A stretch of DNA of 64,000 bases, from IMG/VR virus record IMGVR_UViG_3300030329_004481; one strand, written 5' to 3'. Positions 14,173-49,493 of this stretch are shown here, in pieces (position 1 is the first letter of the stretch; the number at the start of each line of letters is the position of its first letter). This DNA comes from a virus. The notes beneath the pieces were generated by a model. It had not been told where the DNA came from, did no database searches, and worked only from the letters and a program-made list of their open reading frames with translations. A program made the position numbers and the translations under genes.

Positions 14173-14874
14173 TTGATGACAACTGAGATTGATGAAAACA
14201 AGATAAACATTGATTATTCTTTGTTTTCTTGGGATGATTATGAAGAATTTATGACGCAAGTACAATATGTTCTTATGAATCCATTTTGGTGTGTTTCAAA
14301 TCAACATATTAATATGATGTGTGAGATAATTGATCATGACAATGATAAACTTTTAGAACATTCTCTAAAATCATTTGATGAAAAATATACCCAAATTCAA
14401 CAAATACATTTGCACAACTTCTATTTGCAACAAGTTGATACATTTTTTAATATATTTTTACTTTACAATAATCACAATTTTAATTATCAAAATAATATAA
14501 AAGAATTAACAAAAAAATATGGAAGGTATGATGATCAAATAGAAAAATATGTTATTGTGACAAATGTAGAAGAATATGAACTATTTATTAAAGAAAAACA
14601 AAAATTAGACAGTACTCTTGCGTTAACTGAATATGATAAAATAAATCCTAATTTATACCTACAAGAAATAAATTTAATTTTATTTAAAACTGAACGAACA
14701 AAATACAACAGTTATTTATCAATAATTGATGAAAATGCGGACAACGCTCCGCCAAAATATAAACGCAAACCACTATTAATGTACAAACTTATTTCAGATA
14801 TCTTTGATATCAAAAAAATTCAAAATTTAAAAATAAATTATGAACTAATCAATAAGCATTTTACAAATTACTAA
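14173..14874 (+). CDS. Hypothetical protein, paralogue of 15536..16177
   Basis: SD AAGGAAGG; shares INxxYSxFxW, YxKIxP and DIFDxxxxxNLKINxxxIN with the downstream paralogue. Confidence 0.7.
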   Translation: MMTTEIDENKINIDYSLFSWDDYEEFMTQVQYVLMNPFWCVSNQHINMMCEIIDHDNDKLLEHSLKSFDEKYTQIQQIHLHNFYLQQVDTFFNIFLLYNNHNFNYQNNIKELTKKYGRYDDQIEKYVIVTNVEEYELFIKEKQKLDSTLALTEYDKINPNLYLQEINLILFKTERTKYNSYLSIIDENADNAPPKYKRKPLLMYKLISDIFDIKKIQNLKINYELINKHFTNY

Positions 14875-15542
14875 TGGAACTATTAATTACTGGTGATAAA
14901 GGTTTTATAGGATCAAATCTTGTAAACTATTTAAAAGATTATCATATCTATGGTATAGATTATCCCAATAACATTATGACTTGTGTTTTACCACCTGTTG
15001 ATTGTGTAATACATTTGGCGGCTTCAACAGGTGTAAGAGGATCACATAAACATCCAAAATCATATTTTGATAATAATGTAAAAGCAACAAAAAGAATATT
15101 TGATCATTATAAAGATACAAAAATTTTATTCGCATCAACATCATCTGTAAAACAATTACAAAGTCCATATTCAATGTCAAAATATGCTTGTGAACTTATG
15201 GCTCCTGATAATGTTGTGATCATGAGATTTTTTACTGTATGGGGAGAACAAAATTATAGGAGTGATATGTTATATGGTATGGCTATGAATGATAAATTAA
15301 AATATGTAACAGATCATAAAAGAGATTTTACTCACATCTATGATGTTTGTAGAGCAATTAAAATTCTGATTGAAAAGGGAGTTGGTGGAGAAACTTATGA
15401 AATAGGACATGGAACACCAATTACTAATTCTGCATTTTTAAAAAAGATAGGGTACAATAAATCGTTGAAAATAAAAGAAGTAGAAGGTGAATCTGATATT
15501 ACTTGTGCAGATCCAACCAAAATAAAAGAATTGGGATGGTAA
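14874..15542 (+). CDS. NAD-dependent epimerase/dehydratase (extended SDR)
   Basis: ITGDKGFIGS, VIHLAA, ASTSS, YSMSK (YxxxK), RFFTVWG, RDFTHIYD. Confidence 0.92.
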   Translation: MELLITGDKGFIGSNLVNYLKDYHIYGIDYPNNIMTCVLPPVDCVIHLAASTGVRGSHKHPKSYFDNNVKATKRIFDHYKDTKILFASTSSVKQLQSPYSMSKYACELMAPDNVVIMRFFTVWGEQNYRSDMLYGMAMNDKLKYVTDHKRDFTHIYDVCRAIKILIEKGVGGETYEIGHGTPITNSAFLKKIGYNKSLKIKEVEGESDITCADPTKIKELGW

Positions 15543-16177
15543 AAAAAGTTAAGATAAATTATAGTTATTTTGAATGGTCTTATTTTTCTGATATTTTAAA
15601 AATAATATCTAGAATATGTTTATATCCTGCTGAATTGACCGGGCCAAGGATAGGAAATAAAATGATGTCATTTTTTGATGAAAATACTCTTAAATTTTCA
15701 AAGGATAGAAAATTTCAAATATATTTAAATATTACAAAAAATATAAACACATTATATAAAATATTCAAAGAATATGAATTGCATTACAATATCTACAAAA
15801 ATGAAAAAAAGAATATAACAAATGATCAAAACTTATTACTTGAAAATAATAAAATTATTAAAAAAATTGATAAATTAAATAAAAAAGTGCACACATTATC
15901 ATACAATAAAATTGATCCAAAATATTTTATATTTACTTTTTATTATATGCATAAAGCTTTTGGAAAATATATGGTTGGTTCTAAAGGTTTTAATAATAGT
16001 GAGAATGGAAATGAACTACAAGATATATCAAATATAAAAATGATAATGAAAGAACCTTTTTTTACTGTACATATATTTGATGTTTTATATGATATTTTTG
16101 ATATGGACGAACTAGACAATTTAAAAATAAATGAAAAAATTATAAATGAGATGTATTCAGAGTTAATAAATGATTGA
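15536..16177 (+). CDS. Hypothetical protein, paralogue of 14173..14874
   Basis: Likely ATG at 15536 (MVKKVKINYSYFEW) overlapping the upstream stop; shared terminal motifs. Confidence 0.65.
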   Translation: MVKKVKINYSYFEWSYFSDILKIISRICLYPAELTGPRIGNKMMSFFDENTLKFSKDRKFQIYLNITKNINTLYKIFKEYELHYNIYKNEKKNITNDQNLLLENNKIIKKIDKLNKKVHTLSYNKIDPKYFIFTFYYMHKAFGKYMVGSKGFNNSENGNELQDISNIKMIMKEPFFTVHIFDVLYDIFDMDELDNLKINEKIINEMYSELIND

Positions 16178-16784
16178 TATTATAATAATATTTTTATGGT
16201 GGCACATCATAGCAACATTTGGATTATCAATAGGATATCATCGATATTTTTCTCACCAAACATTTAAAGTATCGTATACTTGGGAAATAATATTTTTAAT
16301 ATGTGGTTATATGTGTGGAGCAAGATCACCAATTACTTGGGCAGCAGTTCATAGATTACATCATGAATATTCAGATACTAAAAAAGATCCACATTCACCA
16401 AAATTTATAGGATTAAAATCTTTATTTTCATTGTGGACTATTGATTACATTCCAAAAAAATATTTCAAAGGATTATTAACTCCCCATTTAAGATTTGCTC
16501 ACAAATATGGAAAATATATATGGTTAGGAATAGGTTTGATACTATTGATAATTAATTTCAATTTCTTTGTAATTTTTTGGTTGTCACCATTTTTAATTAG
16601 TTATATTGGATTTGGAATATTAAATTATTTTGGTCACAATCCAACTCCAACTAATAGATTGTGGATTAATTTATTTGCTCCAAGTGAAGGTTGGCATGAA
16701 GAACATCACAATCATCCATCAAAATATAAAATGAACAAATATGATATCGCTGGATTCATTATTACAAAAATCAAAAGCAGTTAG
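16170..16784 (+). CDS. Membrane fatty acid desaturase (delta-9/acyl-CoA type)
   Basis: His boxes HRYFSH, HRLHH, HEEHH; SDT..DPHSP; TM segments. Confidence 0.92.
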   Translation: MIDIIIIFLWWHIIATFGLSIGYHRYFSHQTFKVSYTWEIIFLICGYMCGARSPITWAAVHRLHHEYSDTKKDPHSPKFIGLKSLFSLWTIDYIPKKYFKGLLTPHLRFAHKYGKYIWLGIGLILLIINFNFFVIFWLSPFLISYIGFGILNYFGHNPTPTNRLWINLFAPSEGWHEEHHNHPSKYKMNKYDIAGFIITKIKSS

Positions 16785-17532
16785 AACATTTCCATTATTT
16801 CCCTTACCGGAAATAGAATTAGATTTAACAGAAGTAAAACATTATAATTGGAATAGTACAAATATAAAAGAATGGTTAAGTCCAGTTATAGATTTGTCAG
16901 GGTTTGAATATGTTTATCCAATAAATGGTATTACAGAGGGATTAAATTATTGGATGTGGCAAGAAGATAGAATATGGATGCATAGTGGAGATTATCAATG
17001 GATAACACCTTCTGTACCACATCAAAATATGGGTATAACATATTTGACAACACCATCATCTATAGATGGAAACTTTAAAGAAGTACCTAATGTATATAAT
17101 TATGTTCTTGATATAGCATATGTAGGATCAACTAAAATTGAAAAAATTAATATACATAACAATGTACAAAAAATATTTTTCTCATTGTCAAAATGTTTCG
17201 GTTTGCGTAACATAAGAACAGGGTGGTATTTTAGTAAAACTCCTGATAAAAAATTAGAACTACTAATAGGATCTGCAAAATATTATAATTATTATGCACA
17301 AGCAGTAGCAGAACATTTTATCAATAAATATGATATAGATATTGTATATAAAACTCTTCGACCTATACAAGAAGAAGTATGTGAACAATTTAACTTAATA
17401 CCTTCTGATGTTGTATGGTTAGCAACAACCAATGATCCAAAATTTGAAAAATTTAAAAGAGGAAACATTTGCCGTGTCAGCATTGCGGAAGAAATATCAA
17501 CTGCCTACCATAGCAGAATTACCACAAATTAA
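16741..17532 (+). CDS. PLP-dependent enzyme (aminotransferase/decarboxylase fold type I, truncated form)
   Basis: GITEGL, TTPSSIDGN, LDIAY, FSLSKCFGL..RTG (Schiff-base Lys). Confidence 0.75.
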   Translation: MISLDSLLQKSKAVRTFPLFPLPEIELDLTEVKHYNWNSTNIKEWLSPVIDLSGFEYVYPINGITEGLNYWMWQEDRIWMHSGDYQWITPSVPHQNMGITYLTTPSSIDGNFKEVPNVYNYVLDIAYVGSTKIEKINIHNNVQKIFFSLSKCFGLRNIRTGWYFSKTPDKKLELLIGSAKYYNYYAQAVAEHFINKYDIDIVYKTLRPIQEEVCEQFNLIPSDVVWLATTNDPKFEKFKRGNICRVSIAEEISTAYHSRITTN

Positions 17533-18121
17533 AATAAATTTATCAAAATTAAAAACAGAATATCTAAAATTTTGCTCAAAATTTATAGATGTGGAAACTG
17601 CAAATCCTCATTTATGTATGAATCATAAAAAACTTGTAAGTGAAGTTTATGATAATTTTGAACAAATAAATCTTACAGAATTAAATGGCGAGCCCATGCC
17701 ATATACTGATAATATAAAAGAAAGAATAAAACGTAGAGAAGAAACATTATACAATAAAAAGACACAAGATTATATTGGTAGTTATTTTGAAAATATAGTA
17801 GAACAATTTATATCTCCTGCTATGAGGATAAGAATTACAAAACTTGCTCCTAAAAAAGAAATAACATGGCACACAGACTATGACCCAACATATGCTACAA
17901 GAATTATTATACCAATATATTCCAATAAAAAAGTTAAAAATTTATTTAAAGTCAGAAAAAATGTTGAAGAATATTTTTTAGAAGAAGGTAAAGCATATTT
18001 TATAAATGGGGGATTTGCTCATTCAGTTAAAAATGATAGTGAAAATTCAAGAATTGCATTAATGTTTAGTTTAGATGGACAAGATGATTTGGAAATTGTG
18101 CCCAATAGAATTACATATTGA
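17432..18121 (+). CDS. Asp/Asn beta-hydroxylase-like Fe(II)/2OG oxygenase
   Basis: RIRITKL.P, WHTD, RIIIP, G..HSV.N...SR. Confidence 0.85.
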   Translation: MIQNLKNLKEETFAVSALRKKYQLPTIAELPQIKINLSKLKTEYLKFCSKFIDVETANPHLCMNHKKLVSEVYDNFEQINLTELNGEPMPYTDNIKERIKRREETLYNKKTQDYIGSYFENIVEQFISPAMRIRITKLAPKKEITWHTDYDPTYATRIIIPIYSNKKVKNLFKVRKNVEEYFLEEGKAYFINGGFAHSVKNDSENSRIALMFSLDGQDDLEIVPNRITY

Positions 18122-18542
18122 AGAAATAAAAAAATTATTTAACAAAACAAAAGGACATAAACATCAAGACAATTATATTAAATGGCCTTTATTTGAATAC
18201 ACAAAATTTGCAAGAATGGGGTGGGACAAACATCTTATATATTATTCTGCTGGTATTGAAAGACCTGAATACAATGGATCAATTAGAATAATGAGTAGAC
18301 ATACTAGAGACAGATCATATAATTTTGGAACATATAATGATGATTTAAAAAGAGGTTTGGAAACTTTAGAACAAAGTACATACTATGCAAAAAAATTAGG
18401 ATATAAAAATATATGGGTTAGTAGAGAAGAAAGTCCAAAACTTTTAGAATATTTTTCCAAACATTCACAATATGATTGGAAATTAAATTATGAAAAATTA
18501 CATTATGGTGGTAAACAATATATTTTAAGAATCAATGACTAG
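18075..18542 (+). CDS. Hypothetical protein, possibly a degenerate GNAT-like fold
   Basis: IRIMSRH...R, AKKLGY..IWVSRE pattern; coupled to neighbours. Confidence 0.5.
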   Translation: MDKMIWKLCPIELHIEEIKKLFNKTKGHKHQDNYIKWPLFEYTKFARMGWDKHLIYYSAGIERPEYNGSIRIMSRHTRDRSYNFGTYNDDLKRGLETLEQSTYYAKKLGYKNIWVSREESPKLLEYFSKHSQYDWKLNYEKLHYGGKQYILRIND

Positions 18543-19161
18543 TATAGTTTTTCCTCCTGGTAAATTTTTTTGTTACTTGAGACAACCAAAAAGTGCAAGT
18601 CTAAGTATGACAAAATGGATTATAGATTTTGCAAAACAAAATAAAAAACCATACTTAACTAGTTTGCCTTATCAACAAAAAAATTTTAATGTTGATTATG
18701 AAAAAAATACAATAATCACCCACCACATGACCGCACAAAGATTAAAAAATACTATTCCTCAATGGTGGAATGATATGGAAAAAATGGTAACAGTTAGAAA
18801 TCCATGGAATATTTTAGCAAGTAAATTCTATCATATGAAAAAATTGGGTGTTAATCAAGTTGCAACAAATACCTTTAAAGAATTTTGTTATGAATTAAAA
18901 AATTTAAGGGGAACTTTAAATCCAGGAGAGAACTACTATAAAATTGATGGTGATATGATCGCAGATCATATTATTCCTGTAGAAAATTTACAAGAATATT
19001 TAAATGAAATTTTTAAAGATTTTATTGTTCCAAAAGTTCAACACACAAATATAGGAACAGTAACACAAGAAAAATATAAAAACCTTTATACTGATGAAAT
19101 AAACAATATGATAGAAATTGATTTCAAATATGAAATAAAATTATTTGATTATAAATTTTGA
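18535..19161 (+). CDS. Sulfotransferase family 2-like protein
   Basis: RQPKSASLSM (5'-PSB-like), HMTA, VRNPW...S.FY (3'-PB-like), Y..LY....I...F..E...F.Y.F C-terminus. Confidence 0.8.
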   Translation: MTSIVFPPGKFFCYLRQPKSASLSMTKWIIDFAKQNKKPYLTSLPYQQKNFNVDYEKNTIITHHMTAQRLKNTIPQWWNDMEKMVTVRNPWNILASKFYHMKKLGVNQVATNTFKEFCYELKNLRGTLNPGENYYKIDGDMIADHIIPVENLQEYLNEIFKDFIVPKVQHTNIGTVTQEKYKNLYTDEINNMIEIDFKYEIKLFDYKF

Positions 19162-20711
19162 TGTAATGGCCTAGATGGGTCACTTTCCCAACCAATCATA
19201 TCATTCTCAAAATTTAATTCATTGATATTTGACAAAGGAACAAGATTATCTTGAGGACGTTTATAATCTGCAGCATTTCCTTTTTCATGATCACCCAAAA
19301 CTATTCCCCCTTCACCATAAACACTTCCTGTTTTAAATTTCAATTCAATACATAAATTTTCTATTTCTTCTCTGCGTCTCACTCTAACATCCATAGTATT
19401 ATATTCTTTTCCATTCTTTGTAACCCATTCATTTTCTTCATCAACATAATAATCAAACATATTATTTTTAAATACTGGTGCACCAGGTAAAATTATCATT
19501 GTTCCACCAATTTCTATTCTACTGATAGGATTTCCATTGATCATATGTTTATGATTTTTTATCCACTCTAAATTTTCTTTATGGTGTTTTTCTTTTTCAT
19601 TAGGATATCCAACAACCATTAATAAAACAACATTAACATTATATTTACTATATAATTCTAAATTTTTTTCCATTATATCATTACTAAATTTTTTTCTCAT
19701 GTGAGTGCGAATTTCTTCTGAAAAACTTTCTACACCAATACTAAGTTGTTTAATATTTGCTCTTTCCATTTTTTCATATATTCTTTCAGGCTGATTTTTA
19801 AAAATAGCCAATCCTTTGATGGATTTAAATAATGATCCATCTTTTATTATTAAATCTAATAATTTTTCAAATTCTTTTTGATTGCCATTAATCAAACTAT
19901 CATAAAAATATATTTCATTAATTCCAATATTTAATAAGTTTTTCATTTCATCATAAATATTTTTCGCACTTCTCCATCTAAACTTTGGCCAATAATGCTC
20001 TACATCACAAAATGTGCATCTCCTAACACACCCACGACTTCCCATTATTCCTGCTTCAAGTTTTTCATATTTCCAATTTGGATTATAATGAACTCTCAAT
20101 CCTCCTGGATCACCAGAAACGTAATTAGCAAAATCAATTCCTGTATAATCAGCTATAGGCAATTGGTCTAAATTTTCTATTTGTGGTGATTTGACAATTC
20201 TATCTTTTATTTCACCTTTAATAATTTTAGGTAAAACCAAATCTCCCTCATTTGATACAGCATGATCTGCTAAATCATTTTCAATGATCCATTCAGCATA
20301 AGTTGATATTGGTGATCCACCAACTATTATTTTTTTATTAGAATTGTATTGTTTAATTTTAGGACTTAACATTTTCAAAGTGGGCAAACTTCTATAACTA
20401 AAACAACTTATTCCTGCCCATTCAGCATCATTGTTTGCAATTTCTTTTGCCCATTTTTCAATGTAATCATTATAAACTTCTTTAACAAATTGTTTGAATT
20501 TCTTTCCCTTATACAAATCTGTATTGGATTCTTTCCATATTTCCCACCATTTACTATTAATTGTATCTTTCCATAATTCATAATTAAAATCTCTCAATTC
20601 AACATCAATACCTTCTTGTTTACAAGAAGCCTGTAAATACCCTAAAGCAAGACTAGGAGTATTAACTCCATTTTTAGGAATAGTACATAGGAGTAATTTA
20701 TTTTTCATCAA
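19149..20711 (-). CDS. Cobalamin-binding (class B-type) radical SAM protein
   Basis: PSLALGYL, GISCFS, IIVGG, SRGCVRRCTFCD, FYDSLING, IGVESFS, VVGYP.E. Confidence 0.9.
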   Translation of the reverse strand: MMKNKLLLCTIPKNGVNTPSLALGYLQASCKQEGIDVELRDFNYELWKDTINSKWWEIWKESNTDLYKGKKFKQFVKEVYNDYIEKWAKEIANNDAEWAGISCFSYRSLPTLKMLSPKIKQYNSNKKIIVGGSPISTYAEWIIENDLADHAVSNEGDLVLPKIIKGEIKDRIVKSPQIENLDQLPIADYTGIDFANYVSGDPGGLRVHYNPNWKYEKLEAGIMGSRGCVRRCTFCDVEHYWPKFRWRSAKNIYDEMKNLLNIGINEIYFYDSLINGNQKEFEKLLDLIIKDGSLFKSIKGLAIFKNQPERIYEKMERANIKQLSIGVESFSEEIRTHMRKKFSNDIMEKNLELYSKYNVNVVLLMVVGYPNEKEKHHKENLEWIKNHKHMINGNPISRIEIGGTMIILPGAPVFKNNMFDYYVDEENEWVTKNGKEYNTMDVRVRRREEIENLCIELKFKTGSVYGEGGIVLGDHEKGNAADYKRPQDNLVPLSNINELNFENDMIGWESDPSRPLHQNL

Positions 20712-21309
20712 TGATCATATATCGCACAGGATTGTCTCCTAAATTTTTTACCTCATGGGATTTAGTGACATCTAGTTGCCATATTTCTCCTGGTTCTAGA
20801 TTGTGCGTAATTCCTTTACAATCTTTAAAGCAATTACCCCCATTAGTACTTATTATCAAATGATAACGATTTGTTTCATTATCACCATCTATATGAGGTT
20901 TAAGAACAAAATTTTTATATCTTTGTCCAACAATAGCTTCACTTTTACTTAAATCACAACCAACTTCATTCTCTATTGATTTTTTAATATAGTCTACTAC
21001 TGTACTTGTATCTTTTAAATATTTAGCAGAAAGTGTGGTGGTATGCGTTTGATGGTTAAACAACCTCAAACTCATAGCATCATATAATTCAAAATTATCT
21101 ATTCTTTGTTGTTTCAGTCCTTGCTTTCTATTAGCATACCAACTTTTTTGAGTTGTTCCTCCAGGATATATTATCATAGTTCTACGAGGAAGATCTTTAT
21201 CAGCATATTTTTCATAGTCATTAACTAAATCATAGTAGGGTGATAATTCTTTATTTAACATATCTAACTTGTCAAAAAAGTTATATTTTAATTTTACTAT
21301 GTTACTCAT
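20698..21309 (-). CDS. AspH-like Fe(II)/2OG oxygenase
   Basis: PHIDGD..RYHL, GEIWQLD..SHEV.N...R. Confidence 0.8.
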   Translation of the reverse strand: MSNIVKLKYNFFDKLDMLNKELSPYYDLVNDYEKYADKDLPRRTMIIYPGGTTQKSWYANRKQGLKQQRIDNFELYDAMSLRLFNHQTHTTTLSAKYLKDTSTVVDYIKKSIENEVGCDLSKSEAIVGQRYKNFVLKPHIDGDNETNRYHLIISTNGGNCFKDCKGITHNLEPGEIWQLDVTKSHEVKNLGDNPVRYMIIDEK

Positions 21310-21883
21310 CTAAAAAATCCACTATCAAATGTATGCGACTATGTGTCAAACTATCATTATTTGCTGCATGCTCTTTACTTGTATCCAATTTCCATATCTC
21401 ACCTGGCTTAGGATAAAATTTTTTTTCTGATTCAAATATTTCAAAATAACTATCTTTGTTAGATGTTAAGGGTATGTGATATCTTGTTAATCCCATAGTA
21501 TCAATATGTTTTTCTAATCTAAATTTTGATCCAGCATATACTATAGCGACTTGTACTTTACCATTTACTCCCAATGTTTTTATTAATTTTTTCACATAAG
21601 GACTTATGGTATCTTCTTTTTTTAAGTAAGCACTCACCATCCTAGTACCAAATTTTGTGTATCTTGTATATAACTTGACATGATTATTTTCTATAATATC
21701 CCATTTTTCTCCTTTACGTTTATGACTAGTATAGTGAGATGTACCAGAAGGATAATTGCACATAACTCTAATTATATCATCAGGCCATTTGTCAGCGATT
21801 TTAGTAACTTCTTGTATGTAATACTGCAAATCAATAAGTAATTGTTCACTATCAACATTAATGTTTAATTTTTCACACTGCAT
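21302..21883 (-). CDS. AspH-like Fe(II)/2OG oxygenase
   Basis: KHIDT..RYHIPLTSN, GEIWKLDT.KEHAA.N...SRIHLIVD. Confidence 0.85.
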   Translation of the reverse strand: MQCEKLNINVDSEQLLIDLQYYIQEVTKIADKWPDDIIRVMCNYPSGTSHYTSHKRKGEKWDIIENNHVKLYTRYTKFGTRMVSAYLKKEDTISPYVKKLIKTLGVNGKVQVAIVYAGSKFRLEKHIDTMGLTRYHIPLTSNKDSYFEIFESEKKFYPKPGEIWKLDTSKEHAANNDSLTHSRIHLIVDFLDE

Positions 21884-34009: not shown

Positions 34010-34015
34010 ATAATC

Positions 34016-38356: not shown

Positions 38357-39044
38357 ATTCTAATATTGATTGTATAGATTTATTATAACAACTAAAAAAA
38401 TGAGGTGCTTTTCTCCACGCAAATGATTCTGGATCAATTAACAACAATTTATCATTATCTAAACAAAGAACATTTTGTTCTGCAATATCATTATGAAAAA
38501 AATAAAATGTTTCTAAATTATCATGAAACTGGTCAATTGGTTCTTGATTAATAAAAACTAATCTTTCATATGTACCTAGATATGGATATTTAAAATATTT
38601 AAACATATCAACATACCAACTTGTAAATTCATTCATTACGTAAAGAAAAAATTCTTTATGTTCTTTTTCATTATCCAACATTGATACTAATTTATCATCC
38701 AATTGCATAAAATTATCATGTTTTTCTAAAACTATTAAAAAAAGATCTGGATCTTTAAAAAGAGGAAAATGACCGTGAACTTTCACCAAAAAATTAAATT
38801 TTTCAGATACTTCTTTATATTCATTATATTCTTCAGATGGAAAATCTTTAACAATTTTTAAAAAATAATTATCATATTGAGTTACATCAACAACTTGATT
38901 CACTTTATTGAAAATATCTTCAATTGAATATTTACTTGTATTTTGAATATTATCATGAAAAATAGTTGCAGAATAAATGATATCTTTTTGTGCTTTATTC
39001 ATTTCAACATAATAATCCATAATATTCTTTCGGCAATATATCAA
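38319..39044 (-). CDS. Kinase-like (APH/choline kinase superfamily) protein
   Basis: FLKI, FHNDIAEQNVL (HxDxxxxN catalytic loop), LLIDPES. Confidence 0.6.
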   Translation of the reverse strand: MIYCRKNIMDYYVEMNKAQKDIIYSATIFHDNIQNTSKYSIEDIFNKVNQVVDVTQYDNYFLKIVKDFPSEEYNEYKEVSEKFNFLVKVHGHFPLFKDPDLFLIVLEKHDNFMQLDDKLVSMLDNEKEHKEFFLYVMNEFTSWYVDMFKYFKYPYLGTYERLVFINQEPIDQFHDNLETFYFFHNDIAEQNVLCLDNDKLLLIDPESFAWRKAPHFFSCYNKSIQSILEYGFVDVEKNISK

Positions 39045-40413
39045 TAATTTTAATTCCTGTATGATTTTCTCTAACTTTTATGTAATTCCAAAATTGTTGT
39101 TTATATTTCCACTCCACATATTTTTTTGAATTTTTTAATAAAGTTATAATATCTAAGTATTCTTGCATACATAGATTTTTAAAACTAACAGATTCAACTT
39201 TATTAAAAATATCAAACGCTTTTGATTCAAGAAAATCAATTAAAAATTCTTTAGTTTGTTTATCTAAATATTCAACATTTAAAAATTCATTATCACCAAT
39301 ACATTGATTTAATGATATTCCAGGAGCTGAGTCCTTATATTTTTCATTATATTTTTCAATAAGTTTTATTATCCATTTTACAAAATCTGGTAAGGTCATT
39401 ATGTTTATTGTTGAATATGCTGAATTAAAATGTAAATTAAAATTTCTCCATTTTCCGAATTCATAATCATTACCATTAAATTGATAATTTTCAATTATGT
39501 AATTAACATTTCTATCAATCAGGTTCCAATTTCCCGGCCATCTTGTAAAATTATAAGTTCCGCCATACCCATCAAGACTAGCTGAAATTTCTGCAGTTTC
39601 AAATTTTGAAAGTATGTTAAGTTTTTTTCTTGAAATTTTTGTCAAATTACTACAAAAAGATAATTTAATATTTTTGGACAATTTTTTTTCAATAAGGTCT
39701 TCAAATTTTTTCCATAAAGAATTGATTATAAATGGTTCTCCGCCTGTTGAATATAAGTGTCTTATATTTGAATCCATTGAATCTAAACTTTTTAAAAAAA
39801 CATCGCTATCAGTCCAAGAAATTTCTTTTGATTTTGAATTTAATTTATTAACAGTATTTAATTTTTTAAGTGACTCATCACTAAAAACTGACTCATTTCC
39901 CAATTCAATTTGTTTATTCATATAATTTTGTAAACTAGTACTATTGAGAGGATGACACATAATGCATGATAAATTACATTTTGCACTCAATTTTATATCC
40001 AAATAATATGGCAAATCACTTACATTATAATTTTCCATTGATTCCACACGTCGTTTTACAAGATTGCCATTACCATCATCAATAATTTGAATTAAATTTT
40101 GATTTTGTCTATAACTTACAGTTTTTCCATTTTTTTCTTCTCTATAGCATTCACTACAATTAATTACCTTTTTACCATTCATCATATCTTTTCTAATGCT
40201 TTTCATATGATCACTATTCCATACTTCTTCTACACTATGAATTGAGGTATGTGTTTCTTGACCATCATTTGAAAAAATTGGATGTTCTGCTTTACAACAC
40301 AATTTATAAAATCCACTAGTATCAGTAGATATGTGTATCCAAGGAAAAACACAAAATGTATCAGTATTTTTAATAAATTTTTTCAAAAATTTTTCTGTTT
40401 TCTCTACTTTCAT
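39004..40413 (-). CDS. N-terminal twitch-domain radical SAM protein
   Basis: FCVFPWIH..LCC, CSEC, CNLSCIMC, GGEPF, SLDG..R.PG.W. Confidence 0.9.
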   Translation of the reverse strand: MKVEKTEKFLKKFIKNTDTFCVFPWIHISTDTSGFYKLCCKAEHPIFSNDGQETHTSIHSVEEVWNSDHMKSIRKDMMNGKKVINCSECYREEKNGKTVSYRQNQNLIQIIDDGNGNLVKRRVESMENYNVSDLPYYLDIKLSAKCNLSCIMCHPLNSTSLQNYMNKQIELGNESVFSDESLKKLNTVNKLNSKSKEISWTDSDVFLKSLDSMDSNIRHLYSTGGEPFIINSLWKKFEDLIEKKLSKNIKLSFCSNLTKISRKKLNILSKFETAEISASLDGYGGTYNFTRWPGNWNLIDRNVNYIIENYQFNGNDYEFGKWRNFNLHFNSAYSTINIMTLPDFVKWIIKLIEKYNEKYKDSAPGISLNQCIGDNEFLNVEYLDKQTKEFLIDFLESKAFDIFNKVESVSFKNLCMQEYLDIITLLKNSKKYVEWKYKQQFWNYIKVRENHTGIKIIDILPKEYYGLLC

Positions 40414-41811
40414 CTATAACAAACCTTTCATTTCAGGAAAAGTCTCTTTAAAATTAGTACCACGAATTCTATCCATAATTGTAATATATTCTACAAATTC
40501 GACCATTCTATTTGACCAATTTTCTGATTTCATAAATGTTATCAATCCTTTAAGTCCTTTTAATCCATAGTTTGCATTTTTCCATTCATCAAAAGATACC
40601 TTACCTTTATACCAAGATGGAATGCCTTTTTCCCAATTATTCTTCCACCACCCATAAAAATCAACATATTTTAAATGACAATCATCTTTAAACCATTGAG
40701 GTAAAATTTTTACATTTAATTGTGGTGGATGATATACAAAATGATAATTAATAGCACCAGCTCCAAATGGCCACATATTGATTTTTTTAAATCCTTCATC
40801 TAATTTCCATTTTATAAAATCTGGTATATAATATATGTTCAATGCTTGAACTGCACACGCAAGAGTAACTTCAACATTATCATCTGTATTATCAAGTAGA
40901 TGCATTTGTTTTACTTGATGATCCCATTTACTAGGATATCTTATATAATCATTCATAACACCAATAGAATCAATACTGTAATGAAATCTTACACGTTTAA
41001 ATTTATCCCATAATTTAAACAATCTGTCTGGCATTTCAACGCCATTACTATTGTATCTCAATTCAATTTGTTCAGCATATCCCATTTCAATTACTTTTTC
41101 AAGTAAAGTATAATGTTCTTCTATTATAGTACTTTCACCACCAGCAAAGTATAATTGATAAATGTTGGGTATCTGGCCATATAAATCATCCCAAAACTTA
41201 GGATTATTTTTATACCAATTATATGAAGCACCATGTTCATCTTTACCACCACCATGCCATTGTGCTGTATATTTTAATGATTCACTTTTTACTTGTGGAT
41301 AATATTCTTTCCAATCTGAAACCCATGCTGAAGAATCATGTGGACTGCACATAATACATTTTAAATTACATTTAGAACCTAAACGTAAATCAATATATCT
41401 AATTTTTGGTGGAATTTCACCATCCTCTTTTGTTTCACTTAAAATATCATCTAAACTAAATCTTTCTAACCAATATCTAGTTTCCCATGTTCTTTTTGAT
41501 AAATGTCCCGCATCTTCTTCTTTAAAACATTTCATACAACTATTGGGTCTTTCTCCCGCAAGCATTTGTTTTCTTACATTCTTCATATAAGAATTATTCC
41601 AAGATTCATTTAATCCTGCTACATTTAAATTAGCAGGTTTACCATCTTCTGTACGAAGTTCACCAACCTTGCCTCCATGTTGTTTATAATCAGTCTTTCC
41701 TACAGAAGATGCGTTTGCGGTACAACAAACCCTCATTGCTCCATCAGGCCTTGTACTAAGGTGCATCCATGGCAATGCACAAAAAGTTTCACTTGGTAAT
41801 TTTATTGCCAT
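40414..41811 (-). CDS. N-terminal twitch-domain radical SAM protein
   Basis: FCALPWMHL..RVCC, CMKC, DLRLGSKCNLKCIMC, AGGE, SIDS..DYIRYPSKW. Confidence 0.92.
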   Translation of the reverse strand: MAIKLPSETFCALPWMHLSTRPDGAMRVCCTANASSVGKTDYKQHGGKVGELRTEDGKPANLNVAGLNESWNNSYMKNVRKQMLAGERPNSCMKCFKEEDAGHLSKRTWETRYWLERFSLDDILSETKEDGEIPPKIRYIDLRLGSKCNLKCIMCSPHDSSAWVSDWKEYYPQVKSESLKYTAQWHGGGKDEHGASYNWYKNNPKFWDDLYGQIPNIYQLYFAGGESTIIEEHYTLLEKVIEMGYAEQIELRYNSNGVEMPDRLFKLWDKFKRVRFHYSIDSIGVMNDYIRYPSKWDHQVKQMHLLDNTDDNVEVTLACAVQALNIYYIPDFIKWKLDEGFKKINMWPFGAGAINYHFVYHPPQLNVKILPQWFKDDCHLKYVDFYGWWKNNWEKGIPSWYKGKVSFDEWKNANYGLKGLKGLITFMKSENWSNRMVEFVEYITIMDRIRGTNFKETFPEMKGLL

Positions 41812-42872
41812 TGCGCTTTATACGCATCAAACCCTGTACCACATTTGTTAGCACAGACTTTTAGTTTACCTTCCTTTACACTGGAACATGACCAAGAATT
41901 TTCAATCATATTAAAAAAATCTCCTTCAATTATATCTTTCAGTTCATTATATATAGCATTTATATTGTTGGCGTCTTTGATCATATTCCATATTGGTGCT
42001 TCTTTTGGTTTCCAATACCATTTATATTGCTGTCCACCCAACCAACAACAAGGGAAAATATGACCTTCAGCAGTGACAAATATTTCTGATTTTTCAATAG
42101 ATTTACAATTAATATCAGTAACATCATAATAATGATCCATACTTCCATACTTATTAACTAGATCCTTTTCTTGCTTTAACGCACTATTGATATACTCATC
42201 TTTTGGTTTTTCTAATTTTTGTGTTTCTTGTCCTTTTCTATTCATTCCTTGGTGAGATTCTTTTCCTTCATGTTTAACAGTAGAAAAAAATCTTCCTGTT
42301 TTCTTTGTTCTAAAATCATCAAACCTCATCTTTTTCGCTAACTCTCTTGCTTCTTCTATCTGATGTTGATTGTGGTCAAATATGATGAATTCCCAACGTG
42401 CTCTACCACCTTTAGAAATAAATGCAGCAGAATTTTTCATACAGTTTTCCCAATTAACACCTTGTCTATATAAATGATTTGTATCACCCAAACCGTCAAA
42501 AGAAAAAGTAACATGACCTTTTCTTCCCATGATAATTGCTAACTCTTTCCACCATTCAACATCTTGTGCACCACCATTTGTATTCATTGAAAGATGCATA
42601 TTGTTATTTTCAATTCTAAAATATTCTAAGCCATAAATACTATCATGTGAAATACATGGATCACCAAGATTACCACACATATACATATGATCCAATTGTT
42701 TAATAAATTCTTTTCTAAATATTATATGATAATCTAAAGTACTTAATTCTGCACCTGTGAGATATGGATTATCTTTACCGCCATTTATATTGCGATCGCA
42801 TTGAAGACATGCTGCTTGACATTTTTGTGTGGGTTCAATATGAACACTTTTAATATCAGAATATTTTAACAT
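41802..42872 (-). CDS. Radical SAM protein with C-terminal twitch/SPASM domain
   Basis: CQAACLQC, CGNLGDP, TNG, FSFDG...HLYR; C-terminal C...FVTAEG..FPCCW...CANKC. Confidence 0.9.
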   Translation of the reverse strand: MLKYSDIKSVHIEPTQKCQAACLQCDRNINGGKDNPYLTGAELSTLDYHIIFRKEFIKQLDHMYMCGNLGDPCISHDSIYGLEYFRIENNNMHLSMNTNGGAQDVEWWKELAIIMGRKGHVTFSFDGLGDTNHLYRQGVNWENCMKNSAAFISKGGRARWEFIIFDHNQHQIEEARELAKKMRFDDFRTKKTGRFFSTVKHEGKESHQGMNRKGQETQKLEKPKDEYINSALKQEKDLVNKYGSMDHYYDVTDINCKSIEKSEIFVTAEGHIFPCCWLGGQQYKWYWKPKEAPIWNMIKDANNINAIYNELKDIIEGDFFNMIENSWSCSSVKEGKLKVCANKCGTGFDAYKAQWQ

Positions 42873-43614
42873 GACAAATTTTTTCTGTTTAAAATGGGGA
42901 ACAAAATATTCACCAACATATGTGAATAGATTATTTAATTCACTTAAAGTAAATTATAACCATTCTTTTAATTTTCATTGTCTTACAGATAATTCTGATG
43001 GATTGAATAAAAATATTGAAATAAAACCAATACCCAAAACATTTTCAGAATATCCAAGAACACAAATTTTTACTTCTGAAAAAATGTGCTACTTCCATGA
43101 CTATGCTTATTTATCTGGAAAGAAAGCATGGTTTGATTTAGATATACTAATACATGGTAACATAACAAATCTAATTAATCAAGAACACAAAAAAATAAAA
43201 TTTATATGGAATTATTGGAGAGATCCATGGTCTTCAATAAAAAATTATGGATTCTTAACAACACCAATCAATTCATCTTTTGTTGCATGGCAAGATGATG
43301 TTGGACAAGATATATATGAAGAACTAATAAAAAATAAAGAAAAAGCATTTTTTACTTATCCATCATTTGACAAATACCTGTTTTATCAACCACATAGAAA
43401 AAATAAAATAAATTTCTGGCATGAAGGAATTGTTTATAATTACAATGTAGGTGCAAAATATCCACACAACTTATTCCCAAAACAATATATGAAAGATTAT
43501 AAAATATGCCTTTTTAATACTTCTCATAAAGCATGGGCTAGATCAAATGAAACACACTTTGAGTTACATGAAACTGATGATTGGGCAAAAGAAATTTGGG
43601 AAAGTTATGTTTGA
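42871..43614 (+). CDS. GT-A fold glycosyltransferase-like protein
   Basis: CLKWGTKYS..YVNRL, FHCLTD, FDLD (DxD), INSS, ICLFN. Confidence 0.85.
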   Translation: MTNFFCLKWGTKYSPTYVNRLFNSLKVNYNHSFNFHCLTDNSDGLNKNIEIKPIPKTFSEYPRTQIFTSEKMCYFHDYAYLSGKKAWFDLDILIHGNITNLINQEHKKIKFIWNYWRDPWSSIKNYGFLTTPINSSFVAWQDDVGQDIYEELIKNKEKAFFTYPSFDKYLFYQPHRKNKINFWHEGIVYNYNVGAKYPHNLFPKQYMKDYKICLFNTSHKAWARSNETHFELHETDDWAKEIWESYV

Positions 43615-44128
43615 ATTAAAATACAATACACCAAAAGAAATACATTATCTTATTGATTGGTCATGCAATGATAACAACAGATTGATAACAAAAAACTTAT
43701 ATGAAACAATAATAAATTTTTATAATGATGAAAGAATTAATTTTTTATGTAGTTGGTTTTGTGGATTAGAATATGAACATTTTGATAAGATGGGATTCGA
43801 TTGCCATTATTATGATGTTGATGAATATGTTTGTAAAGCTAATAAAGAATTAACAAATAAAGTCTATAATGTTGATGTAATTTTTGATGAAGTTAAAATT
43901 GAAGAAGGATTATATGTAAACAAATTTTGTGAAGACACATATCCTATCGGAAAAATTTATAAAGGTGAATTTGTCTTAATAGGATCAGACAATGATCATT
44001 TAGCATGTATAAATCAAATACATAATATAGATACATTAATAGAACAAAATGAATTGACCAAAATTTATTCTACAAAAACATTTAAAGGTTTATTTAACTA
44101 TTACATGGTGGCAGGATGCAATTTATAA
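43607..44128 (+). CDS. Degenerate methyltransferase-like protein, related to 44116..44844
   Basis: Likely ATG at 43607; LCSWFCG, YDVD, VNKFCE, DHLACIN, YMVAG parallel IGGWFG, YEID, INTSCE, DHINCV, YMAIG of the next gene. Confidence 0.55.
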   Translation: MFELKYNTPKEIHYLIDWSCNDNNRLITKNLYETIINFYNDERINFLCSWFCGLEYEHFDKMGFDCHYYDVDEYVCKANKELTNKVYNVDVIFDEVKIEEGLYVNKFCEDTYPIGKIYKGEFVLIGSDNDHLACINQIHNIDTLIEQNELTKIYSTKTFKGLFNYYMVAGCNL

Positions 44129-44844
44129 ACATAGTAAAAGACATTGAAAAGATTGATAAAGAAGATTTAGATCTTAATTATGAAATAGGACAATTACAAA
44201 AGAAAAAGGGCAAATTACTTCATGAAAGAAATAAAATATCTAAAGATTATAAAAAAAGTCCATATTATTTTATTAAAAAATGGATTACCAAATTTCATCC
44301 ACATTTACTAGAAAGTTACAATGATTCCATCTCAGATGGGCAATATAAATCAAAAATGTGGTTAAGAAGTGCTCTTAAAAATATACAACAACCACAACAT
44401 CCATTACATATAGAAATAATTGGTGGATGGTTTGGATTTCCTTTGATTGAAATGCTTGATTTTTTAAAAATAAAACAAATAGACTTTTATGAAATTGATG
44501 AGGATTGTAAAAAAGTTTTAGTCCAATATAGAAACAAATTTAAATATGATTTTAAAATTGTTGAATTTGAAAATTATTTTGAGAGAGAAGAATTGAGAAG
44601 ACGTGATATCATAATAAACACATCATGTGAACATATGGATGATATATCAAAAATGAAAAAGTATTATAAAAATAAACCCCTTTTAGTTCTACAATCAAAT
44701 AATTATTCTGAAATTGATGATCATATCAATTGTGTACAATCTTCAAATGAATTAAAAAGTAAAAATGAAATAAACATAAGTTATTATGCACAAGCATTAC
44801 AATTGGAAAAATATACAAGATACATGGCAATAGGTCAATGGTAA
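44116..44844 (+). CDS. Class I SAM-dependent methyltransferase-like protein
   Basis: GQ..SK.WL, IIGGWFG, YEID, INTSCEHM, LQSNNY..I.DHINC, RYMAIG. Confidence 0.75.
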   Translation: MQFINIVKDIEKIDKEDLDLNYEIGQLQKKKGKLLHERNKISKDYKKSPYYFIKKWITKFHPHLLESYNDSISDGQYKSKMWLRSALKNIQQPQHPLHIEIIGGWFGFPLIEMLDFLKIKQIDFYEIDEDCKKVLVQYRNKFKYDFKIVEFENYFEREELRRRDIIINTSCEHMDDISKMKKYYKNKPLLVLQSNNYSEIDDHINCVQSSNELKSKNEINISYYAQALQLEKYTRYMAIGQW

Positions 44845-45392
44845 CTATCATATTAGTTTGTACAGGGACAAAATATGATGAATGGTATGTAAACAACATA
44901 ATACATATGATTAAAAATTATGGTAATTTAATTTATGATGAAATACAAATAATAAGAAAAGGTGAAGGTAGTGTATATGACAAACTCCAAATGTTTAGAG
45001 ATTTTACAGAAGAAAGATATTACCTTTATTTTGATTTAGATGTTGTGATTAAAGGTGACATAAATCATTTAGTAAGAAAAGAATTTACAACTCTTTTTGC
45101 TTGGTGGCGACCCAAATTACATACACCAATTAACTCATCAATTATGTCATGGTCTGGTGATAATTCATATATTTACTATGATTTCCATGAAGATGAAAAC
45201 TACAGTAAAGTAAAATATTGGAGAGGAATTGATGAATATATTTACAAAGAAACATATTGTCAATTATATGAAAAAGTTTGCTGGTCATGTGCGTATGATG
45301 CAAAGGAATTGAATTATCCTGTATGTCTTTTTAATCATGGTAAAGATATGAAAAAAATTGAATGGACACAAAAATATTTGCTCTCAGAATAG
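44838..45392 (+). CDS. GT-A fold glycosyltransferase-like protein
   Basis: VCTGTKY..WYV, YDKLQMF, LYFDLDVVI, INSSIMSW. Confidence 0.85.
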   Translation: MVTIILVCTGTKYDEWYVNNIIHMIKNYGNLIYDEIQIIRKGEGSVYDKLQMFRDFTEERYYLYFDLDVVIKGDINHLVRKEFTTLFAWWRPKLHTPINSSIMSWSGDNSYIYYDFHEDENYSKVKYWRGIDEYIYKETYCQLYEKVCWSCAYDAKELNYPVCLFNHGKDMKKIEWTQKYLLSE

Positions 45393-46009
45393 GAAACAGA
45401 TATGGTATTGAATATGAAGATTATCTAAATTCTAAACTAGATAATATAACATGGATTCATGAACCATATAGAGATAATGTACTATTTCAATGGAATAAAT
45501 TATTTTTAATGAATCTTGAGATAGATGAACCAATTGTTGTCATAGACATTGACATATTACTAATCAATGATTATATGAAATTGATAGACTATCCTATTAA
45601 AGAAGATGAATTTGTATCTATTCATTCTTGGTGGAGAGATACAGACAATCCAAATTACACAATGAATGGTGGGTTTCAAAAATACTATCCAAAATCATGT
45701 AAATACATTTATGAAAAATTTATGAGCGATCCAATACATTGGCAAAGTTATTATATAAAAAATGGAACAACTATTGGACCAGTAAATGGAGAACAATATT
45801 TTGTAGAAGATTCAGTCAAAGAAAAATTAAAATTAAAATTAGTACCCTCTGAATGGGTATGTAGATTTAAAGAAACATATACAATGGATTGGCTATATAA
45901 CATTAATAAAAAATATCCAGGTGACTATATGTACATGGGTGATTTTAATCCAGATATAAAACTTATTCACTTTAATCAATATGGAAATACTAAAAGAATT
46001 TTTGACTGA
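45362..46009 (+). CDS. GT-A fold glycosyltransferase-like protein
   Basis: RIGNRYG..YE, QWNKL, VIDIDI (DxD), NGGF.K, GEQYFV, LIHF. Confidence 0.8.
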   Translation: MDTKIFALRIGNRYGIEYEDYLNSKLDNITWIHEPYRDNVLFQWNKLFLMNLEIDEPIVVIDIDILLINDYMKLIDYPIKEDEFVSIHSWWRDTDNPNYTMNGGFQKYYPKSCKYIYEKFMSDPIHWQSYYIKNGTTIGPVNGEQYFVEDSVKEKLKLKLVPSEWVCRFKETYTMDWLYNINKKYPGDYMYMGDFNPDIKLIHFNQYGNTKRIFD

Positions 46010-46433
46010 AGAACAATGTTTTGATATAATTGTTCAAAGAAAAAATGATTTAAGAAAATCACACATTTTTGGTGGGTTTACTAATAAAATAAGAAATTCA
46101 AGATCTTCATATTGGAAGAAAGATTCTTTATTAGATAAAAAATTTAATTATCAATCAGTCGAATATCAATTAGTTGAATATGTGAAAGATTGCCATTACA
46201 CATGGCATGATGATGATAGTTTCAGAAGAATAGAAACAAATATAATTTTATTAAATGATAATTTTGAAGGTGGGGAATTTGAGTTAAAAGATTATGGAAT
46301 TATTAAATTAAATATTGGCGATTGTTTAAACTTTAAATCAACCTTAGATCACAGGGTAAAACCAGTGACCAAAGGTATTAGATACTCTTTGGTCACATGG
46401 TTATATGATCAATCAGAAAAACCTATAATTTGA
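45981..46433 (+). CDS. Prolyl-4-hydroxylase-like Fe(II)/2OG oxygenase
   Basis: FLT.EQC, IRNS, YTWHDD, LLND.FEGGEF, F.S...HRVKPVTKG.RYSLVTW. Confidence 0.9.
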   Translation: MEILKEFLTEEQCFDIIVQRKNDLRKSHIFGGFTNKIRNSRSSYWKKDSLLDKKFNYQSVEYQLVEYVKDCHYTWHDDDSFRRIETNIILLNDNFEGGEFELKDYGIIKLNIGDCLNFKSTLDHRVKPVTKGIRYSLVTWLYDQSEKPII

Positions 46434-47986: not shown

Positions 47987-47999
47987 AATTACATTTCCA

Positions 48000-49478: not shown

Positions 49479-49493
49479 TTTTCCCTTTGTTTG

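Follow-up and report, generated by a model that had tools for sequence, protein, structure and literature searches.

A mosaic island of radical S-adenosylmethionine enzymes, oxygenases and transferases in the host recognition cluster of an uncultured T4-like marine myophage

The window analyzed here is a 64,000-nucleotide stretch of viral DNA (IMG/VR record IMGVR_UViG_3300030329_004481), and its subject is an island of modifying enzymes at positions 14173-46433, where 38 open reading frames (ORFs) lie tightly packed in ~32 kb. Counted with longest-ORF starts, 36 of the 37 junctions overlapped or abutted and the widest gap was 6 bp, in agreement with the original prediction, made from the letters of the window, which had reported 38 genes with almost no intergenic space at these coordinates. 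GC content was 26.5% in the island versus 31.6% and 32.2% in its flanks, and the genes formed three transcription blocks (plus strand, 14173-19161; minus strand, 19149-42872; plus strand, 42871-46433). Judged by its gp13, gp14 and gp15 genes and by the baseplate and fibre genes that occupy 46409-64000, the window is part of the genome of an uncultured T4-like myophage. The borders of the island and its cassettes are as follows (genes are named by their lower coordinate throughout).

11625-12524, gp15
12524-13366, gp14
13368-14114, minus strand, gp13-like neck protein (head-tail adaptor), left border of the island (phrog_211, E 3.6e-41)
14173-19161, cassette A
19149-25859, cassette B
25744-29008, cassette C
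29002-42872, cassette D
42871-46433, cassette E
46409-52414, minus strand, fibre/virion structural genes 46409, 46928, 48000, 49494 and 49958, right border (PHROG hits for 48000 and 49958)
52640-58639, minus strand, VrlC homolog of 1999 amino acids, start marker of the host recognition cluster (found by tblastn)

The 52640-58639 protein was 34-36% identical (tblastn) to the VrlC proteins of two Pelagibacter phages, HTVC008M and Mosig, and also to a Melnitz (Methylophilales phage) protein, and 48000 and 49958 gave PHROG virion-structural and baseplate-domain matches. The island was found, as predicted, between the last fibre gene (fibres, 46409-52414) and gp13 (13368-14114), that is, in the interval from the VrlC homolog to gp13/gp14/gp15, together with fibre-like genes and a GT8-like glycosyltransferase (GT) family. 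In pelagimyophages and cyanomyophages this interval houses the host recognition cluster (Zaragoza-Solas et al. 2020, PMC7029224), which in pelagimyophages is large and nonsyntenic (mean, 44.6 kb), has VrlC and gp14 as its constant borders, and holds tail fibres, GT8 and lipopolysaccharide (LPS) genes, radical S-adenosylmethionine (SAM) cassettes and AspH, the last being a core gene of pelagimyophages. The island is an enlarged form of this hypervariable island described in SAR11 phages, and not a new kind of locus. It likewise lies in the structural region and combines fibre, GT8-type, radical SAM and AspH genes, but its 10 radical SAM enzymes and 10 cupins far exceed the published description, which assigns no biochemical function; Nishimura et al. 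(PMC5332604) have noted 12 radical SAM genes in a marine T4-like genome. Because a known plasticity hot spot explains the position within the virion module, position alone is no evidence for decoration of virions and says little about the substrate. What the window adds is an architecture with VrlC on one side and gp13 on the other, a row of seven cupins framed by pairs of B12 radical SAM and sulfotransferase genes, confirmation from predicted folds of the GT8-like and pyridoxal phosphate (PLP) enzyme families, and a match to the cultured phage Mosig, which is a laboratory system.

Mosig EXVC030M (MT647606.1) carries an enzyme island of ~20 kb (~54.7-74.4 kb) between VrlC and the fibres. By tblastn, it matched only ~10 of the 38 window genes (26-54% identity), in cassettes A, B (23938) and E plus 41802; among them were 14874, 16170, 16741, 17432, 23938, 41802, 44116, 44838 and 45362. 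Of the enzymes described below, Mosig lacks the seven-cupin array and B12 radical SAM enzymes and has no close N-twitch radical SAM enzyme. The window in turn has no counterpart of the DegT/ArnB-type aminotransferase, carbamoyltransferase, nitroreductases and TauD of Mosig, whose record also annotates an N-acetyltransferase beside the ArnB-type sugar aminotransferase and the carbamoyltransferase. The phages differ in size as well, at ~245-252 kb for the window phage and 141-147 kb for Mosig and HTVC008M.

The size of the window phage was read from contigs: one island protein recurred without a change of letter on contigs as long as 252 kb, and the contigs examined that carry this protein numbered at least 24. 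The island makes up ~13% of a ~245-kb genome. It was colinear at 95-99% identity in four metagenome runs, and marine metagenomes of several studies (2014 to 2025) contained its DNA. We conclude that the phage is real, abundant and stable. These runs represent DNA contigs only, and short "joints" of 21 to 22 letters in them were ignored as probable cross-matches between paralogs. Megablast of flank and island against phage records gave no DNA-level match.

Ten island proteins carried the CX3CX2C motif and all ten matched PF04055, which confirmed the predicted number of radical SAM enzymes. Scores were above the Pfam cut-off for 19149, 25744, 27977, 29002, 30809 and 37217 and below it for 35121, 39004, 40414 and 41802, three of which passed the NCBIfam model NF033640 (N_Twi_rSAM; curated cut-off, 170 bits). 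Six paralogs exceeded this cut-off (29002, 30809, 35121, 37217, 39004 and 40414; 203-422 bits), while 27977 and 41802, at ~38 bits, were not members.

19149-20711, minus strand, B12-binding radical SAM enzyme, methyltransferase type, cassette B (PF02310, 39.6 bits, cut-off 32.1; PF04055, 76.2)
25744-27561, minus strand, putative B12-type radical SAM enzyme, KedN5-like, cassette C (PF04055; NF033712, E 4.5e-47, subthreshold)
27977-29008, minus strand, core radical SAM enzyme, "27977 type" (PF04055)
29002-30819, minus strand, N-twitch radical SAM enzyme fused to a class I methyltransferase, cassette D (NF033640, 202.8 bits; Methyltransf_25/31)
30809-32017, minus strand, N-twitch radical SAM enzyme, cassette D (NF033640, 254.8 bits)
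35121-36368, minus strand, N-twitch radical SAM enzyme, cassette D (NF033640, 325.4 bits)
37217-38356, minus strand, N-twitch radical SAM enzyme, cassette D (NF033640, 373.5 bits; Pfam SPASM)
39004-40413, minus strand, N-twitch radical SAM enzyme, cassette D (NF033640, 259.5 bits)
40414-41811, minus strand, core N-twitch radical SAM enzyme, "40414 type" (NF033640, 422.3 bits)
41802-42872, minus strand, core radical SAM enzyme, "41802 type" (CX3CX2C at residue 18; weak PF04055 and TIGR04317)

In the six NF033640 members, a Cys-rich twitch (half-SPASM) region stands on the N-terminal side of the CX3CX2C core, and in two of them the Pfam SPASM domain preceded the Radical_SAM domain (residues 15-86 of 37217 and 11-95 of 40414). 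In the N-twitch alignment C11, C92, C95 and the cysteines of CX3CX2C were invariant; 29002 differed in lacking the CC pair and in its methyltransferase fusion. NF033640 is a family by name, with no reaction assigned. It is large, comprising more than 1,000 sequence clusters at E <= 1e-30, and 37217 alone had 1530 database relatives at E <= 1e-10. Some relatives (P0124, P0126, P0134, P0142 and others) are proteins of 800 to 1400 amino acids that are tandem duplicated or fused, and one (25% identity) lies in an uninformative setting among unannotated genes of Ralstonia phage RsoM2USA. Sequence searches of the PDB with the N-twitch profile matched SkfB (peptide; the best match), GDGT-MAS (lipid), viperin (nucleotide) and BlsE/BtrN (sugar); the same searches with 41802 and 27977 gave nothing decisive. 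The domain content of 19149 (CX3CX2C at residue 228; best NCBIfam matches subthreshold) firmly predicts a B12-type enzyme. For 25744, PF04055 was above the cut-off and PF02310, at 18.4 bits, below it.

Oxygenases numbered 10, namely nine AspH-type Fe(II)/2-oxoglutarate (2OG) cupins (17432, 20698, 21302, 21873, 22351, 23250, 23938, 24572 and 32014), with an HxD..H triad invariant in 9 of 9, and the P4H-type protein 45981. The predicted class was thus right, and the predicted number, 11 oxygenase-type cupins, was not. PF05118 scored above its cut-off in 17432, 20698, 21302, 21873, 22351 and 32014; 23250, 23938 and 24572 were assigned to the AspH type through profile, paralogy and Mosig evidence, 23938 being 32% identical to a Mosig Asp_Arg_Hydrox protein. 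The N-terminal halves of the seven array members are unrelated. Relatives of 32014 were found in 10 bacterial-genome loci, at no more than 44% identity. Subtyping of the cupins with NCBIfam returned subthreshold matches to LpxO, OlsC and amino acid hydroxylases, which do not discriminate.

17432-18121, plus strand, AspH-type Fe(II)/2OG cupin, cassette A (PF05118; HxD..H; 54% to Mosig_00072)
20698-25204, minus strand, tandem array of seven AspH-type cupins (20698, 21302, 21873, 22351, 23250, 23938 and 24572), cassette B (PF05118 for four; HxD..H in all)
32014-32727, minus strand, AspH-type cupin, cassette D (PF05118, E 2.3e-20)
45981-46433, plus strand, P4H-type 2OG-Fe(II) oxygenase (2OG-FeII_Oxy_3), cassette E (PF13640, E 6.7e-12)

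The remaining island genes include sugar-modifying enzymes, transferases and PLP enzymes. Here the predicted inventory of three GTs, two sulfotransferases, two PLP enzymes, methyltransferase-like proteins, a desaturase, an epimerase, a short-chain dehydrogenase/reductase (SDR) and a kinase-like protein was borne out, the methyltransferase-like proteins being 43547, 44116 and the fusion in 29002.

14173-14874, plus strand, uncharacterized protein, paralog of 15503, cassette A (blastp, E 5e-5; no Pfam or NCBIfam match)
14874-15542, plus strand, sugar epimerase/dehydratase, short, NAD dependent, cassette A (PF01370, E 2e-21; 35% to a Mosig "epimerase")
15503-16177, plus strand, uncharacterized protein, paralog of 14173, cassette A
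16170-16784, plus strand, fatty-acid-desaturase-family membrane protein, cassette A (PF00487, E 5.5e-10; 40% to Mosig_00080)
16741-17532, plus strand, truncated class I/II PLP aminotransferase-like protein, cassette A (D.AY and SLSK..R.G motifs; 47% to a Mosig "aminotransferase")
18075-18542, plus strand, protein with no library match, cassette A
18535-19161, plus strand, sulfotransferase-like protein, cassette A (PF00685, E 0.007, subthreshold; PKSAS and RNPW motifs)
25173-25859, minus strand, sulfotransferase-like protein, Sulfotransfer_2 type, cassette B (PF03567, 22.2 bits, cut-off 22; KKTGS and IRNPW)
27558-28004, minus strand, truncated SDR-like protein, cassette C (TGxxxGxG; 30% to viral SDR-like cluster 7)
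32666-34009, minus strand, 447-amino-acid protein with no library match and no local relative, cassette D
34016-35170, minus strand, 384-amino-acid protein of a family recurrent in viral arrays, cassette D (jackhmmer, 15 relatives in viral loci; no library match)
36358-37239, minus strand, class I/II PLP enzyme, predicted alpha-amino-acid-type substrate, cassette D (AlphaFold2 [AF2] pLDDT, 92)
38319-39044, minus strand, APH/choline-kinase-like small-molecule kinase, cassette D (HNDIAEQN..IDPE; Atlas APH-type clusters, score 0.96)
42871-43614, plus strand, GT8-like GT-A glycosyltransferase, cassette E (AF2 pTM, 0.73; Foldseek; DxD; phrog_1962)
43547-44128, plus strand, methyltransferase-like paralog of 44116, cassette E (jackhmmer link to the 44116 family)
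44116-44844, plus strand, core class I SAM methyltransferase-like protein (Atlas class I methyltransferase clusters, 0.97; family alignment shows Rossmann motifs)
44838-45392, plus strand, GT8-like paralog of 42871, cassette E (paralogy; 40% to Mosig_00094)
45362-46009, plus strand, distant member of the GT8-like family, cassette E (jackhmmer from 44838, E 8.6e-33; 34% to Mosig_00092)

The three GTs form one paralog family. The model of 42871, confident in its N-terminal half, has a GT-A/GT8 fold whose top Foldseek matches were glycogenin, the UGGT catalytic domain, LgtC and a GT8 protein (E 2e-7 to 3e-6; TM score, ~0.5); D89 and D91 of the DxD motif were invariant, and no Pfam GT model matched. 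The sulfotransferase-like proteins 18535 and 25173 are paralogs (E 5.5e-16) with weak Pfam matches and clear PKxxS and RNPW motifs in both. Fold evidence supported both PLP enzymes: the model of 36358 matched GntC, ACC synthase, C-S lyases and CobD (Foldseek, E 1e-9 to 1e-10), and 16741 aligned with the 36358 family as a distant paralog. In that family, found in 17 viral and 12 bacterial-genome loci, D156, K184 and R192 were invariant. Subthreshold models for 14874 were dTDP-glucose 4,6-dehydratase, LegB and GalE, and a PDB sequence search with the 44116 family gave nothing decisive. Most island proteins were scanned with two or three of Pfam, NCBIfam and PHROG, and these family scans returned no replication, transport or peptidase gene, as predicted; precursor peptides, likewise predicted to be absent, have no room between the ORFs. 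Transmembrane (TM)-like segments were found in the desaturase 16170 (two segments) and in no other island protein.

The distribution of the genes was assessed in 80 IMG/VR loci chosen for an N-twitch gene. The 40414 type, which had 571 relatives (stretches) in IMG/VR, was present in 80 of 80, the 41802 type in 74, the 44116-type methyltransferase in 67 to 68 and the 27977 type (at most 71% identical among viral loci) in 53 to 54. Variable arrays follow this core, and radical SAM genes accounted for 38% of the 1448 ORFs within 10 kb of it. Cassettes A and E, common to the window and Mosig, were nearly absent from the 80 loci. In five large related records, one of them a complete 328-kb genome, several scattered clusters together contained 8 to 23 radical SAM genes per record; four of the five had gp23, and none gave a VrlC match. 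It therefore seems that the core moves from one T4-like lineage to another. The island as a whole is a mosaic, with five cassettes at the least, and not one assembly line; the single line of the original prediction was too strong a claim, since the cassettes differ in distribution (A and E match Mosig; the core occurs in other T4-like lineages). In comparison with the near-identical locus L001, the ratio of nonsynonymous to synonymous substitution rates (dN/dS) was 0.07 for the core radical SAM genes 40414 and 41802 and 0.3 to 0.7 for GT and methyltransferase genes.

Two further families were seen in the related arrays. A 74-amino-acid protein (...NNNI..FNK.AHHNS.NWY...GPGK..) lies between the methyltransferase and the 41802-type gene in 34 of the 80 viral loci (L012:7479-7706, L018:8693-8917 and 32 others), where it may serve as a carrier, a partner or a substrate, and has no homolog in the window. 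PP-loop ATPases (SGGxDS; C-terminal Cys cluster) occurred in 55 copies in 37 viral loci, such as L008, L010 and L011, and also in Bdellovibrionales loci L104 and L143; their likeness to QueC is only remote, and they may serve in acid activation or amidation. For the viral "DADA" family (cluster 4), a PDB search gave nothing decisive, and hhalign against the GT8-like family was negative.

The radical SAM core is shared with bacteria. In a pattern-seeded scan that covered 185,579 species genomes, relatives came almost only from Bdellovibrionales and related metagenome-assembled genomes (MAGs), closed chromosomes and one isolate included. The N-twitch family was found in 31 of 151 sampled Bdellovibrionota genomes versus 0 of 14 controls, with 4 to 16 full-length NF033640 genes per Bdellovibrionales genome, often in tandem. 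The triad was shared at 59-66% (40414 type), 43-49% (41802 type) and 57-67% (27977 type) identity; among 73 bacterial-genome loci searched, the 27977 type occurred in 42 (mostly Bdellovibrionota) and the 41802 type in 39. Methyltransferase, 36358-type PLP enzyme, AspH cupin and B12 radical SAM genes were also shared with the bacterial loci. Three of the four bacterial neighborhoods inspected were of glycan type, with five GT2 genes and an acetyltransferase in the first, an eight-gene array beside AsnB, GT2, UDP-sugar dehydrogenase and GT-C genes in the second (locus L160; OZ220490.1, ~783-804 kb), and a methyltransferase and GT1 in the third; the fourth was not. In Bdellovibrio sp. HCB2-146, the N-twitch family lies within a glycosyltransferase-rich cluster. 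Enzyme families, intactness, selective constraint, position, mosaic structure and the core shared with Bdellovibrionota are direct observations.

The 1.9-Mb Bdellovibrionales genome OZ220490.1 carries 16 full-length N-twitch genes, eight of them head to tail. A general link of arrays to Peptidase_S74 fibres in Bdellovibrionales was rejected, as 1 of 10 S74 genes lay near an array. Four loci binned as Rickettsiales, Acidimicrobiaceae, Crocinitomicaceae and Gammaproteobacteria MAGs (L141, L151, L081 and L082) encode proteins 54-96% identical to those of the phage and are probably phage contigs misbinned into MAGs.

Signals of expression were sought in the window. The T4-type late promoter motif TATAAATA was depleted (6 copies versus 18 expected), and its minus-strand copies at 3036-3043, 11523-11530 and 14157-14164 lie upstream of gp13, of an endolysin-like gene and of a gene downstream of gp15, a placement that suggests T4-like late transcription in the phage.

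14157-14164, minus strand, T4-type late promoter motif TATAAATA, 43 bp upstream of gp13

Counts in scans for sigma-70 promoters and terminators equaled those of shuffled controls in this AT-rich DNA and are therefore uninformative on timing. The start codons of 41802-42872 (minus) and 42871-43614 (plus) overlap in the palindrome CATG at 42870-42873. The conserved N terminus MTNFFCLKWG places the start of the plus-strand gene at 42871, so that each promoter must fall within the coding sequence of the neighbor. In the left flank, on the minus strand, two further genes (3430-4626 and 5599-7239) stand among structural genes; they encode a P-loop ATPase/kinase-like domain fused to a 5'-3' deoxyribonucleotidase, and a tRNA nucleotidyltransferase of phage type.

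Taken together, the island most likely builds an unusual, heavily edited sugar-based decoration in the cytoplasm, a reading to which we assign a probability of roughly 0.5. A cytoplasmic site follows from the confinement of TM-like segments to the desaturase and from the lack of a flippase, polymerase or exporter. A carbohydrate product is favored because the enzymes resemble a deoxy- and amino-sugar tailoring toolkit, with epimerase/dehydratase, SDR, GT8-like, sulfotransferase, kinase, methyltransferase and twitch and B12 radical SAM members, and because Mosig carries sugar-pathway genes. The glycan tailoring put forward by the original prediction was thereby supported, with further evidence in the GT8 fold, the carbohydrate-type sulfotransferase motifs, the nucleotide-sugar epimerase/dehydratase and the glycan neighborhoods in Bdellovibrionota. 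We infer both the carbohydrate substrate and the order of the steps. In this order, the epimerase/dehydratase and the SDR-like protein would remodel a nucleotide sugar; the radical SAM set (the 40414/41802/27977 core, five other N-twitch paralogs and two B12-type methylases) would edit unactivated carbons; the AspH-type cupins would hydroxylate, with O-methylation, phosphorylation or sulfation to follow; and the GT8-like enzymes would transfer the decoration to an acceptor within the infected cell. Roughly divided, the acceptor may tentatively be sought in virion fibre or neck proteins, with somewhat less expectation in host envelope precursors and only as a slim chance elsewhere. The amino-acid-class PLP enzymes and AspH-type hydroxylases hint that the decoration may carry an amino-acid-derived group. 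A similar set of enzymes (twitch and B12 radical SAM, PLP, APH-like kinase, GT and SDR/epimerase) serves the BtrN/BlsE and aminoglycoside-type B12 methylase pathways, and the N-terminal region of the N-twitch proteins aligns weakly with the BtrN twitch (E 0.04), which stands, however, at the opposite end of the protein. The island lacks a scaffold synthase and a resistance or export gene, and the likeness is one of toolkit, not of membership.

Several observations weigh against a sugar-based decoration. The island contains no sugar-activating nucleotidyltransferase and no scaffold-forming enzyme, and its conserved PLP partner falls within the alpha-amino-acid class and outside that of the DegT sugar aminotransferases. 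AspH-family and B12 radical SAM enzymes are equally typical of peptide and lipid chemistry; the PDB matches of the N-twitch profile are scattered over peptide, lipid, nucleotide and sugar enzymes; and NF033640, the 41802 type and the 27977 type are all without a member of known substrate. No TATAAATA copy precedes an island gene. In five Bdellovibrionales genomes, GT2 genes lay within 10 kb of ~3 to 4 of ~17 N-twitch clusters versus ~1.5 expected by chance by our estimate, a weak enrichment.

Remodeling of the host surface, in which envelope glycans or lipids (O-chain, capsule, lipid A and aminolipids) would be altered against superinfection by competing phages, differs from the favored reading in the acceptor alone and is rather unlikely. 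Superinfection blocking has been proposed for the GT8 and LPS genes of host recognition clusters (PMC7029224). The membrane desaturase is conserved with Mosig, Bdellovibrionales arrays adjoin polysaccharide genes, and the nearest (weak) NCBIfam models of the AspH cupins, LpxO and OlsC, are lipid hydroxylases. LpxO and OlsC carry membrane anchors, however, which the island cupins lack, and apart from the desaturase, the sole nonsoluble protein, there is no flippase, polymerase, Gtr-type protein or acyltransferase among membrane proteins of the island.

It is unlikely that the hot spot has merely gathered independent lipid, sugar, amino acid and cofactor cassettes without a common product. Three transcription blocks, five cassettes of differing distribution, the match of A and E to Mosig and their near absence from the 80 N-twitch loci, the recurrence of the core in T4-like lineages without a VrlC match, and accessory GT and methyltransferase genes that evolve much faster than the core would all fit such a collection. 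The methyltransferase, 41802 type and 40414 type nevertheless co-occur in 67 to 80 of the 80 loci, the radical SAM triad is found in Bdellovibrionota too, and PLP, SDR, cupin and B12 radical SAM genes accompany the arrays in phages and bacteria alike.

Direct modification of proteins or peptides would resemble the maturation of ribosomally synthesized and posttranslationally modified peptides (RiPPs), with fibre or virion residues cross-linked, C-methylated, epimerized or hydroxylated in the manner of proteusins. In the polytheonamide proteusin cluster, B12 radical SAM enzymes (PoyB/C), a radical SAM epimerase (PoyD), an oxygenase (PoyI) and a methyltransferase (PoyE) act together, and the island shares this mix of enzyme classes but lacks a leader-bearing precursor, a protease and a LanM-like enzyme, and its radical SAM genes form large arrays of paralogs. 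The best NCBIfam match of 19149 was TIGR03975 (RiPP C-methyltransferase), far below threshold, SkfB headed the PDB sequence matches of the N-twitch profile, the PLP partner is of amino acid class, and fibre-like genes adjoin arrays in the window, L159 (Mtd_N/PTL_trimer) and L156 (Peptidase_S74). No precursor ORF fits, however, with a widest gap of 6 bp, and PqqD/RiPP recognition element (RRE) domains, peptidases and exporters were absent from the Pfam, NCBIfam and PHROG scans of the island proteins, which distant forms could escape. The RiPP reading therefore fails its defining tests. Arrays of up to 8 paralogs and 18 to 23 radical SAM genes per phage record are atypical of RiPP clusters, S74 fibre genes are not generally near Bdellovibrionales arrays, and radical SAM genes are scattered genome-wide in the complete 328-kb relative. 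We consider the RiPP-like line of the original prediction quite improbable.

T4-like phages often modify their DNA, and the toolkit for thymidine hypermodification comprises a kinase, PLP enzymes, radical SAM enzymes and GTs. Despite the resemblance of the island to this toolkit, the frequency in related arrays of PP-loop ATPases with weak QueC-like ends, and the presence of viperin among the weak PDB matches, hypermodification of phage DNA or synthesis of modified nucleotides is very unlikely, since the window has no PP-loop homolog, the five related phage records (one complete) have no TGT/DpdA and only partial QueC matches at or below the cut-off, and the same modules are chromosomal and multicopy in Bdellovibrionota. 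The 7-deazaguanine pathway (DpdA/TGT with QueC, QueD and QueE) would thus lack its transglycosylase in those five records, which bear on the window phage indirectly.

A further idea, which we hold to be doubtful, is that N-twitch arrays carry out combinatorial radical editing of a sugar or sugar-linked amino acid on the contact surfaces of predators. If so, the edits would be C-methylation, epimerization, dehydration or cross-linking, placed on phage fibres here and on cell surface glycoconjugates in Bdellovibrionota, and the number of paralogs would set a strain-specific surface chemistry. We know of no glycan-editing radical SAM system of this kind. An abundant ocean phage devotes ~13% of its genome to 38 tailoring enzymes, and the N-twitch family, without a characterized member, is multicopy in large aquatic phages and in predatory Bdellovibrionota alike. 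Mosig on HTCC1062, with ~10 shared genes, and Bdellovibrio sp. HCB2-146 are cultured entry points. The identity of the product would explain the enzymes of marine myophage host recognition clusters and would probably reveal new radical chemistry.

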